Positions 5,492-7,008 of a stretch of DNA of 64,000 bases are shown one piece after another (position 1 is the first letter of the stretch; each line of letters starts with the position of its first letter). This stretch comes from a virus: IMG/VR virus record IMGVR_UViG_3300025705_000005, positions 10,486 through 74,485 of that record; one strand, written 5' to 3'. Under the pieces are notes generated by a model that searched no databases, was not told the origin of the DNA, and was given only the letters and a program-made list of their open reading frames with translations. Position numbers and translations under genes: made by a program.

Positions 5492-5518
5492 TTTTTTTCT
5501 CCTATTAAGTTTATTAAT

Positions 5519-6520
5519 TTATTTTAAACCAGCTAGCTTTTTCCATCTAGCGGCCATATCATTGCCCTCAGAAATTATTTTCTTTGGTGCTGAACTTTGT
5601 GTTGCTTTAGAAGCATAACCTTCTTTTACAACAGTTCTTTTCTTTTTCGAAACATTTAAGTTTTCTGCTAATGTTGAGAATACCAATTTCACTTCTCTTA
5701 CTGATGAAGTTCTATCGAAGTTTTCAAGTACTTTTACTTTTTGTCCTTCGTTTAAATCAAAAGTTCTGAATAGTTTGTTAGTATAAAGTAACTTAGCGTT
5801 CAACAGATTTACTTCATTGATAGTTTTTTGTAAACTTTCAATTGTTAAATAAGCTTCTTCTAATTCATCTTCAACACTTTCTTCTTCAACACTTTCTTCT
5901 TCTGATACTTCTTCTTCTGAATCATCTTCCATTTCTTTCAAAGTTCTAATAACTTCGTCTAAATCGATTTCTTCTTCTTCGTCCATATCATCTTCTTCAG
6001 CAACAGCTTCAGCTTCTTCTGATTCGTAAGTTTCTTCAGCTGATTCTTCATCATCTTCAGATACTTCATCATCAGCCATTTCAGCTTCTAATTCAGCGAT
6101 TACAGATTCTAAATCTAAATCATCTTCATCCATATCTTCTTCAGATACTTCTGAATCTTCTTCAGATTCTTCTTCTTCGGTTACTTCTTCATCTTCTGAT
6201 TCGTAAGCTACTTCAGCAGATTCTTCATCTTCTTCGGTTACTTCTTCTTCAGCAGGTACTTCTTCTTCACCTTCTAAGTTATCTTCAACTTCTTCTTCAG
6301 AACCCATTTCCGAATCCATGTCAGCTTCCATTTCTGGTGCTTCCATTTCATCTTCCATTTCATCTTCATCAGCTTCTTCAGCTAATTTTGCAGAAATCAT
6401 TGATTGTAACTTAGGTGTGAATGCTTCTTCTAAGGCTAACTTAGCGTTTGCTAGAGCAGTTTCTTTAACGGCTTTAGCATCAGCGATAGCTTCAGATAAC
6501 AAATCTTTTCTATTTGCCAT
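5519..6520 (-). CDS. Prohead core/scaffold protein (gp22-like)
   Basis: Extremely acidic central region, coiled-coil ends, position directly upstream of the major capsid gene. SD AGGAG at 6528-6532. Confidence 0.8.
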   Translation of the reverse strand: MANRKDLLSEAIADAKAVKETALANAKLALEEAFTPKLQSMISAKLAEEADEDEMEDEMEAPEMEADMDSEMGSEEEVEDNLEGEEEVPAEEEVTEEDEESAEVAYESEDEEVTEEEESEEDSEVSEEDMDEDDLDLESVIAELEAEMADDEVSEDDEESAEETYESEEAEAVAEEDDMDEEEEIDLDEVIRTLKEMEDDSEEEVSEEESVEEESVEDELEEAYLTIESLQKTINEVNLLNAKLLYTNKLFRTFDLNEGQKVKVLENFDRTSSVREVKLVFSTLAENLNVSKKKRTVVKEGYASKATQSSAPKKIISEGNDMAARWKKLAGLK

Positions 6521-6627
6521 AATTATTCTCCTAAATTGTTTTTGGAAATAAGATTATTATAAATCTTAATAGATATTATTTAACTAATATATTTAATCAC
6601 CTATTGGAAAGTGATATTTTTATCTTC

Positions 6628-6635
6628 TATAAATA
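6628..6635 (-). promoter_or_regulatory. Putative late promoter motif TATTTATA for the scaffold-capsid operon
   Basis: Intergenic, 108 nt upstream of the scaffold start. Confidence 0.55.
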
Positions 6636-6674
6636 GTGATGTAAAATTGAAAACACTAAAAAAGTGTTAACTAT

Positions 6675-6941
6675 TTATTCTTCGTTTTGTCTACGTTGCC
6701 AATCAGCTCGGACTGCTAGTTGCATTTTCCTTCTTTTTATTGCTGATGGTTTTAGATATTCTTTACGTTCTTTTAATTCTTCAAGCTTTCCACTTTCTTT
6801 CATTTTTCTTTTAAATGCTTTTAAAGCTAGTTCGATATTTCCGTTAACTACTCTAACTCCAGTATAACAACCTGGAATCTCCATATCTTCTCTTCTAACT
6901 TTTTTGTAAGGTTTTTTAAATTTGTTTTCGTTATCTTGCAT
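6675..6941 (-). CDS. rpsU: Ribosomal protein bS21 homologue (88 aa, about 26 aa N-terminal extension)
   Basis: VRVVNGNIELALKAFKRKMKESGKLEELKERKEYLKPSAIKRRK is the bS21 signature. Start moved to ATG 6941 because the longer start lies within a terminator hairpin. Confidence 0.9.
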   Translation of the reverse strand: MQDNENKFKKPYKKVRREDMEIPGCYTGVRVVNGNIELALKAFKRKMKESGKLEELKERKEYLKPSAIKRRKMQLAVRADWQRRQNEE

Positions 6942-6962
6942 ATTGTTTTGATAAATGTTTAT

Positions 6963-7001
6963 AAAAAAATACACCTACCACATTGTTGTTGATAGGTGTA
7001 T
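6963..7001 (-). terminator. Terminator-like hairpin upstream of bS21
   Basis: Minus strand ATACACCTATCA-N9-TGGTAGGTGTAT (12-bp stem with one G:U) followed by a T run. Confidence 0.7.
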
Positions 7002-7008
7002 ATAAATA
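7001..7008 (-). promoter_or_regulatory. Putative late promoter motif TATTTATA upstream of bS21
   Basis: Intergenic copy abutting the hairpin. Confidence 0.55.

Follow-up and report, generated by a model that had tools for sequence, protein, structure and literature searches.

The silencing of an anti-Shine-Dalgarno (anti-SD) sequence is best understood in Bacteroidota ribosomes, where mutation of the ribosomal protein bS21 alone reverses it. Phage-encoded bS21 is widespread, but we know of no demonstration of its function. The subject of this analysis is a bS21 gene in a stretch of viral DNA of 64,000 nucleotides (positions 10,486 to 74,485 of IMG/VR record IMGVR_UViG_3300025705_000005; hereafter the window), in which recognised structural genes mostly carry Shine-Dalgarno (SD) sequences and recognised non-structural genes mostly do not. 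Taken as a whole, the sequence data are best explained, tentatively, by a phage bS21 that would shift late translation toward SD-led virion mRNAs.

In Flavobacterium johnsoniae, Tyr54 of the same protein stacks on A1534, and Ile55 touches the sequestered 3′ tail of 16S rRNA through van der Waals contacts, these two being the only bS21 residues named as contacts of the tail (PMC7797042). The Y54A substitution or a C-terminal deletion raises translation of SD-led reporters 3-5 fold, with threefold derepression by Y54A alone (PMC9976891), and ribosomes that lack bS21 or contain its Y54A or C-truncated form gain SD use (PMC7797042; PMC9976891). In that bacterium the single strong-SD target is rpsU and the change of state is the absence of bS21 (PMC7797042; PMC9976891), whereas the bS21 gene of the window is itself SD-less, the targets would be dozens of virion genes, and the proposed change would be substitution by a viral paralogue. 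McNutt et al. (2023) treated phage bS21 in general terms only (PMC9976891).

Among phages, the freshwater Bacteroidetes myophages described by Chen et al. (2022) resemble the window in that bS21 lies in the block of terminase, portal, protease and capsid genes (PMC9723584). In those phages bS21 is co-expressed with late genes, a Bacteroidetes host is predicted, and phage bS21 was proposed to replace host bS21 and thereby favour phage mRNAs; residue 54 is aromatic in 61/61 phage bS21 proteins, from which it was concluded that the anti-SD stays blocked (PMC9723584). In contrast, residue 54 here is Arg, and SDs, the use of which was outside the scope of that paper, mark the late genes. An N-extended S21 has already been described in huge phages, and preferential initiation on phage mRNAs has been proposed (Al-Shayeb et al., 2020; PMC7162821), and no relation was found between phage S21 and the ribosome-binding-site consensus (Watson et al., 2020; PMC7550191), whereas in the present material a relation emerges when genes are divided by region or promoter class and when relatives that have an extended bS21 are set against those that do not. 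The bS21 of Pelagibacter phage HTVC008M, which is also a T4-like marine myophage, has been shown to enter Escherichia coli 70S ribosomes (Mizuno et al., 2019; PMC6375957); it differs from the window protein in being host-sized and SAR11-like, and its phage uses SDs uniformly (SD fraction 0.57) and has the late motif TATAAATA rather than TATTTATA. Flavobacterium phage vB_FspM_immuto (MW353176) shares head-block synteny and the motif TATTTATA with the window, but has no bS21 and is SD-depleted. No link between phage bS21 and SD-led late genes was found in the literature searched.

The bS21 gene (6675-6941; all coordinates are those of the window, and all genes and sites mentioned lie on its minus strand) encodes 88 amino acids and matches PF01165 over residues 29-79 (E 1.4e-12; 47.5 bits against a cut-off of 27). 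Its best matches among structural chains, 9i5v_9 (E 2e-8) and F. johnsoniae 7jil_z (E 2e-6), align without gaps over 44-46 residues in a register that places host residue 10 at phage residue 34, Tyr54 at Arg78 and Ile55 at Ala79. The Arg that the original prediction had placed at the Tyr54 position is therefore present on proper alignment, and the anti-SD-sequestering signature, an aromatic residue 54 followed by Ile55, is replaced by Arg78-Ala79. Twenty-two cellular Bacteroidota bS21 proteins that were read out are 63-67 residues long; this position is occupied by Tyr in 19 of them and by His in 3. The core signature RKEF(I/T/L)KPS is present as RKEYLKPS. The phage protein also falls outside the host format of 62-67 residues with a weakly basic C-terminal part, having three Arg after position 54 and a Lys/Arg-rich N-terminal extension of 24 residues, the coding sequence of which is conserved among 73 metagenomic homologues. 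Among 80 related viral loci, position 54 is Arg in 53, Tyr in 14 and Phe in 13. Because Arg is found in 53 of these 80, the published generalisation that residue 54 of phage bS21 is always aromatic does not hold for these marine clades.

In an AlphaFold model (predicted local distance difference test score, pLDDT, 77), Arg78 and a conserved Trp/Tyr81 share one long C-terminal helix, and residues 1-10 have low confidence (mean pLDDT 52). A Foldseek search with this model gave no match, as can occur for a small extended helical protein. Searches of the phage collection with megablast (region) and tblastn (bS21) gave no matches even at E 10, a result that is not evidence of absence, because a low-complexity filter likely masks the Lys-rich protein and Mel-JY01 and HTVC008M do encode bS21.

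The SD pattern of the window was assessed at 60 curated starts. An initial measure, duplex energy against the 12-nt 3′ tail, counted A/G-rich leaders such as AGAAAG as SDs; the measures adopted were contiguous matches of at least 4 nt containing GG, together with the core anti-SD energy. Positions -11 to -7 contain 28-42% G, compared with about 10% further upstream. The coding strand contains 15 copies of TAGGAG, 6 of which stand 3-11 nt ahead of a curated start (0.1 expected, p 7e-10), and AGGA occurs in the same interval in 19 cases against 1.8 expected; GGGA, GAGG and AAGGA are likewise enriched in position before starts. TAGGAG sites stand 7 nt before the start (5491) of the major capsid gene (site 5499-5504; gene 3857-5491; T4 gp23 family, PF07068, E 1.4e-77) and 7 nt before the start (6520) of the gene that follows bS21 (site 6528-6533; gene 5519-6520), which encodes an acidic scaffold-like protein of 333 residues. 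The latter had no family match in a profile search and was named from its position between bS21 and capsid, as in immuto and Mel-JY01. Further copies precede a fibre-like open reading frame (ORF) of 3345 residues (21964-32001; site 32008-32013), which was recognised by gene calling and its leader, is the largest gene of the contig and has a late-type motif upstream, and the starts at 41644 and 60384.

The non-structural genes without SDs have A-rich leaders and include those for a UvdE-like endonuclease (start 59164), endonuclease I (36620), a Toprim primase (36164), an HD hydrolase (55833), GroES (56213) and a ClpP-like protease (56872), as well as bS21 itself (6941). An SD core of at least 4 nt precedes 29/44 genes at or below 54.1 kb of the window and 4/16 genes above it (p 0.008). 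When the genes are divided by function, 6/8 recognised structural genes have an SD compared with 2/11 non-structural genes (p 0.024); this division was limited to 19 genes because PHROGs and Pfam left most genes of the window unnamed. The TAGGAG sites and the SD-less leaders of the seven genes just named were thus found where they had been predicted, and the predicted split between late and early genes is supported in its outline, with exceptions on both sides: the portal gene and the terminase gene (only GGGA) among the late genes, and PhoH, the Hsp20-like gene and two unnamed genes (starts 58097 and 60384), which carry SDs.

It is conceivable that these purine-rich motifs are some other signal of late mRNAs, such as a regulator site or a processing or stability element. 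Many sites are merely 4-nt cores (AGGA, GGGA), and pairing with the anti-SD is without direct evidence. However, the family of motifs (GGAG, AGGA, GAGG and TAGGAG), its peak at -11 to -8, the spacing of 6-8 nt and the setting in packed operons are all SD-like, and this explanation is highly improbable.

The same dichotomy, over whole genomes, was found in two near-complete relatives that were fetched for comparison, G001 (176 kb, the same class of bS21) and G004 (214 kb, Arg54 and a basic C-terminal tail). In their structural blocks the SD fraction is 0.5-0.6 with a G peak of 30-48%, whereas in their other genes (120 and 170, respectively) it is 0.18, equal to the internal-ATG control, with a flat G profile. 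The enrichment of SDs in late over early genes that had been predicted is therefore present genome-wide, with significant spatial clustering in both (p 0.0005), and such clustering was absent in all four comparison phages. Of these, HTVC008M, with a SAR11 host and a host-like bS21, uses SDs uniformly, as noted above; P-SSM4, with a Prochlorococcus host and no bS21, has weak and uniform SDs; Mel-JY01, with a Lys54 bS21, uses SDs everywhere; and immuto is depleted (0.06 compared with 0.23 in its control), with a capsid leader devoid of G. No bS21 was found anywhere in the 160 kb of immuto, which nevertheless has the synteny and the TATTTATA motif of the window phage. A published survey also describes Cellulophaga phages as devoid of SDs.

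The contrast between phages is sharpest when the promoter class is fixed. Among genes directly behind TATTTATA, SDs were found in 5/11, 8/20, 14/25 and 9/14 in phages with an extended bS21 (40-64%), compared with 0/19 in immuto and 1/26 in G007, a relative with a host-sized bS21. TATTTATA is common to the intergenic regions of G000, G001, G004, G006, G007, immuto and Mel-JY01.

Across about 100 capsid-related contigs, SD-rich late genes accompany an extended phage bS21. An SD precedes the capsid gene in 47/47 Arg-type relatives. Loci with an N-extended bS21 (at least 10 additional residues, measured by hmmalign; n=97) are SD-rich in 96% of cases, and a second SD-rich class has a bS21 with a short N-terminus and a long basic C-terminal tail. 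SD-poor loci include most of those with a host-sized bS21 and those in which the flanks are complete but bS21 is lacking (immuto, L217, L225 and L228). On the capsid tree these states amount to about 4-5 separate contrasts, which is suggestive though not a formal comparative test. The expectation that an unusual phage bS21 goes with SD-led late genes is thus borne out as a strong association across relatives. This co-occurrence, like the SD dichotomy and the bS21 gene with its substitutions, is directly supported.

The original prediction had gone further and assigned the switch to the replacement of Tyr54 by Arg, which alone would free the anti-SD and explain the SD-led late genes. The Arg-Ala pair does stand at the positions of Tyr54 and Ile55, and Y54A derepresses threefold in F. 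johnsoniae (PMC9976891). Moreover, among N-extended loci the mean core anti-SD pairing is stronger for Arg/Lys types than for aromatic types (-3.65 compared with -2.71 kcal/mol; p 7e-6, uncorrected and with kinship ignored). However, the frequency of SDs near bS21, by motif count, is 0.58 for the Arg type compared with 0.58 and 0.46 for the Tyr/Phe types (p 0.84), and L248, L260, L221 and L113 have Arg54 but are SD-poor. Two complete genomes are also at odds with this role of residue 54, and with a bS21-driven shift as first conceived. G007 (202 kb; L293-L303) has a host-sized bS21 of 62 residues (112935-113090 in its own genome) with Arg54 and is SD-depleted throughout (SD fraction 0.07 compared with 0.18 in the control); G006 (157 kb) has Tyr54 and SDs concentrated in its structural block, and about 25 further loci with Tyr or Phe at position 54 have SD-led late genes. 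Because G007 is SD-depleted despite Arg54 and phages with Tyr54 or Phe54 are SD-led, residue 54 alone does not decide the SD trait, and the claim for the single substitution, which now appears quite improbable, fails in this form. The architecture of bS21, a long N-extension or a C-terminal tail, tracks the trait better than residue 54 does. Because Arg/Lys types pair more strongly within the N-extended class, loss of Tyr54 may at most contribute to the effect, and the SD trait more probably depends on the extended or altered bS21 in its entirety.

In the mechanism favoured here, early genes and bS21 itself, having SD-less A-rich leaders, would be read by native SD-blind ribosomes. Phage bS21 would be produced late from a promoter of the TATTTATA type and then exchanged into 30S subunits, and subunits containing it would release the anti-SD from the pocket formed by bS6, bS18 and bS21; alternatively, the added basic segment may stabilise the helix of SD and anti-SD. 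SD-led virion mRNAs would then be preferred at initiation. The more specific statement that an extended phage bS21, whether with Arg/Lys54 or an aromatic residue, converts SD-blind Bacteroidota ribosomes to SD-reading ones late in infection is plausible and is put forward with more reserve. The host, the incorporation of phage bS21 into ribosomes, the release of the anti-SD and the causal role of the protein are what we infer.

Besides G006, G007 and the aromatic loci, several points weigh against such a shift. The portal gene is late but SD-less, and 4/16 genes of the early-like block have SDs. The L116/L117 lineage is N-extended, with Phe-Ile at positions 54-55, yet it is SD-poor, and L262 has no bS21 in its locus, yet it has some SDs (intermediate). 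The associations stem from few independent lineages. We know of no experimental demonstration that any Bacteroidota-phage bS21 enters ribosomes.

If the late use of SDs is real, its enabler may also be something other than phage bS21, such as loss or proteolysis of host bS21 or another phage factor, with phage bS21 instead sustaining SD-less initiation or countering a translation-stalling defence. In favour of this explanation, F. johnsoniae ribosomes depleted of bS21 translate SD-led mRNA better, McNutt et al. raised the possibility of a phage-encoded protease directed against host bS21 (PMC9976891), and the SD trait is not tracked by residue 54. Genes for a ClpP-like protease, GroES, an Hsp20-like protein and an AAA ATPase are also present in the window, and the ClpP-like one is a candidate for a protease that would remove host bS21. 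However, across relatives the SD trait goes with an extended bS21, and no homologue of bS18 or bS6 was found in the five related phage genomes searched. An enabler other than phage bS21 is therefore regarded as unlikely.

As predicted, the bS21 gene lies directly upstream of the scaffold and capsid genes and behind a late-type motif, TATTTATA at 7001-7008. The whole upstream module (6942-7010) joins this motif to a hairpin of 9-10 bp (about 6969-7001; arms ATACACCTA / TAGGTGTAT) and a U-run (about 6962-6969), with the start codon about 20 nt further on. The arrangement belongs to the Arg-type clade, where 19 relatives preserve it with some compensatory changes in paired bases; the module is also found upstream of bS21 in L065-L114. 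Elsewhere in the window the order is reversed, a terminator being followed by TATTTATA. Transcription from TATTTATA may begin inside the stem; such transcripts would then escape the terminator that stops upstream read-through, and bS21 would be strictly late. The hairpin could insulate bS21 from read-through or serve as an attenuator. In three studies, contigs from RNA libraries have their ends within the hairpin, at 6979-6985, which is a weak hint because contig ends are not transcript starts. The bS21 region was found in contigs of four marine RNA libraries, which show neither the level nor the timing of expression. Among relatives, 83-100% likewise lack an SD in front of bS21.

In the intergenic sequence of the window, TATTTATA occurs 11 times on the sense strand (1.0 expected) and precedes many virion genes in addition to bS21. 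It is the reverse complement of the T4 late promoter TATAAATA, which is not enriched in this phage and is enriched only in HTVC008M and P-SSM4. A second motif, (TTTC)GTATATT(AG), stands before SD-less non-structural genes, including those for the UvdE-like endonuclease and the ClpP-like protease (sites within 56873-56942, 59165-59440 and 62825-62923), and also occurs in intergenic regions of G001 and G004. It may serve as an early or middle promoter element, and (TTC)GTATATT was the only motif added by a de novo k-mer search.

The host is probably a member of Bacteroidota, as the original prediction assumed, and most likely a marine member of Flavobacteriales. This assignment is favoured because of the kinship with immuto, the core signature of bS21, the SD-free early genes and a bS21 contig in a Flavobacterium metagenome-assembled genome (MAG). 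The last of these came from a scan of 185,579 prokaryotic species, one genome each, for peptide patterns derived from the phage protein. Of the 64 loci found, 63 are cellular and all from Bacteroidota; the 64th, L001, is a contig of 1.6 kb that encodes a phage-type bS21 with 86% identity and was binned in the Flavobacterium MAG. Two further points count against the reading of a shift in Bacteroidota: a host link by clustered regularly interspaced short palindromic repeats (CRISPR) or an isolate is absent, and neither G000, G001 and G004 nor immuto shows enrichment of the Bacteroidota -7 motif TAnnTTTG.

These two points bear on another explanation, namely that the host is non-Bacteroidota or atypical and its ribosomes read SDs normally, so that virion SDs would only tune very high expression and phage bS21 would serve a generic function, for example as a limiting initiation component or in the upkeep of ribosome activity. 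The host is unproven, the -7 motif is not enriched in the clade of the window phage, and HTVC008M and Mel-JY01 encode bS21 and use SDs genome-wide. However, phages of SD-using hosts have SDs in every region, whereas the early genes of G001 and G004 are at the level of the internal-ATG control with a flat G profile. In addition, the core of the phage bS21 bears the Bacteroidota signature, and immuto, the closest relative with a recorded Bacteroidota host, is SD-depleted. A host with normal SD reading is accordingly considered doubtful.

Mel-JY01 (PP395634.1; L147, L176-L185), annotated as a Microcystis phage, falls in the immuto-like group. Its bS21 is Bacteroidota-like (TEYIKPS, Lys54), and TAnnTTTG is enriched on the sense strands of its intergenic regions (24 compared with 6.1 expected). 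Its host assignment may merit re-examination.

The window is the larger part of an IMG/VR contig of 74.5 kb (GC content 33%; CheckV completeness 41%), with 60/60 called genes on the minus strand and a coding density of 96%. It is part of a T4-like marine myophage of the immuto-like group, the full genome of which is roughly 175-180 kb. Membership of the T4-like phages is shown by a gp23-type capsid, a gp20-type portal, a gp21-type protease and baseplate wedge proteins. The closest cultured relatives are the same two for capsid, terminase and primase, namely immuto (55%, 56% and 43% identity, respectively) and Mel-JY01 (60%, 58% and 40%); the next relative is an uncultured phage of 484 kb, and all others are far more distant. 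The gene order places bS21 within the terminase-portal-protease-capsid block, as in the myophages of Chen et al. (2022). The block comprises, beyond the genes already described, a gp21-like prohead protease (9678-10295; phrog_207, E 2e-53) with a GGGGAG SD, the SD-less gp20-like portal protein (11820-13697; PF07230, E 1.5e-72) and the large terminase (13765-15336), which was identified by tblastn to annotated terminases (56-58% identity) and has only the weak GGGA site.

Endonuclease I (PF05367, E 3e-53) and the Toprim primase form a non-structural pair inside the virion block (35223-36620), both SD-less; the Toprim families scored below the curated cut-off for the primase, which shares 43% identity with the annotated DNA primase of immuto. 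The early-like block (54779-63901) consists of 16 mostly non-structural genes with A-rich leaders and includes the genes for the AAA ATPase, the UvdE-like endonuclease, the Hsp20-like protein, the ClpP-like protease, GroES and the HD hydrolase as well as small ORFs. The Hsp20-like, ClpP-like and GroES genes lie within about 4 kb (55905-59785), with the AAA ATPase gene (62924-63901) upstream of them but still inside this SD-poor block; of these four, only the Hsp20-like gene has an SD. Three non-coding gaps of 216-276 nt (59165-59440, 60385-60601 and 61671-61886) stand out in the otherwise densely coding contig, and the one before the UvdE-like gene contains a GC-rich hairpin and a T-run. No tRNA genes were found in the window.

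If phage bS21 does shift late translation in this way, virion mRNAs would have a private translation channel. It would also account for bS21 being the commonest ribosomal protein encoded by phages, paired with SD-led late genes in hundreds of aquatic phage contigs. The combination of an altered bS21, SDs confined to late genes and bS21-less relatives that have the same promoter motif but no SDs offers a concrete test of virus-driven specialisation of ribosomes. For gene calling and host prediction in aquatic phages, it would mean that an SD-rich genome does not exclude a Bacteroidota host.

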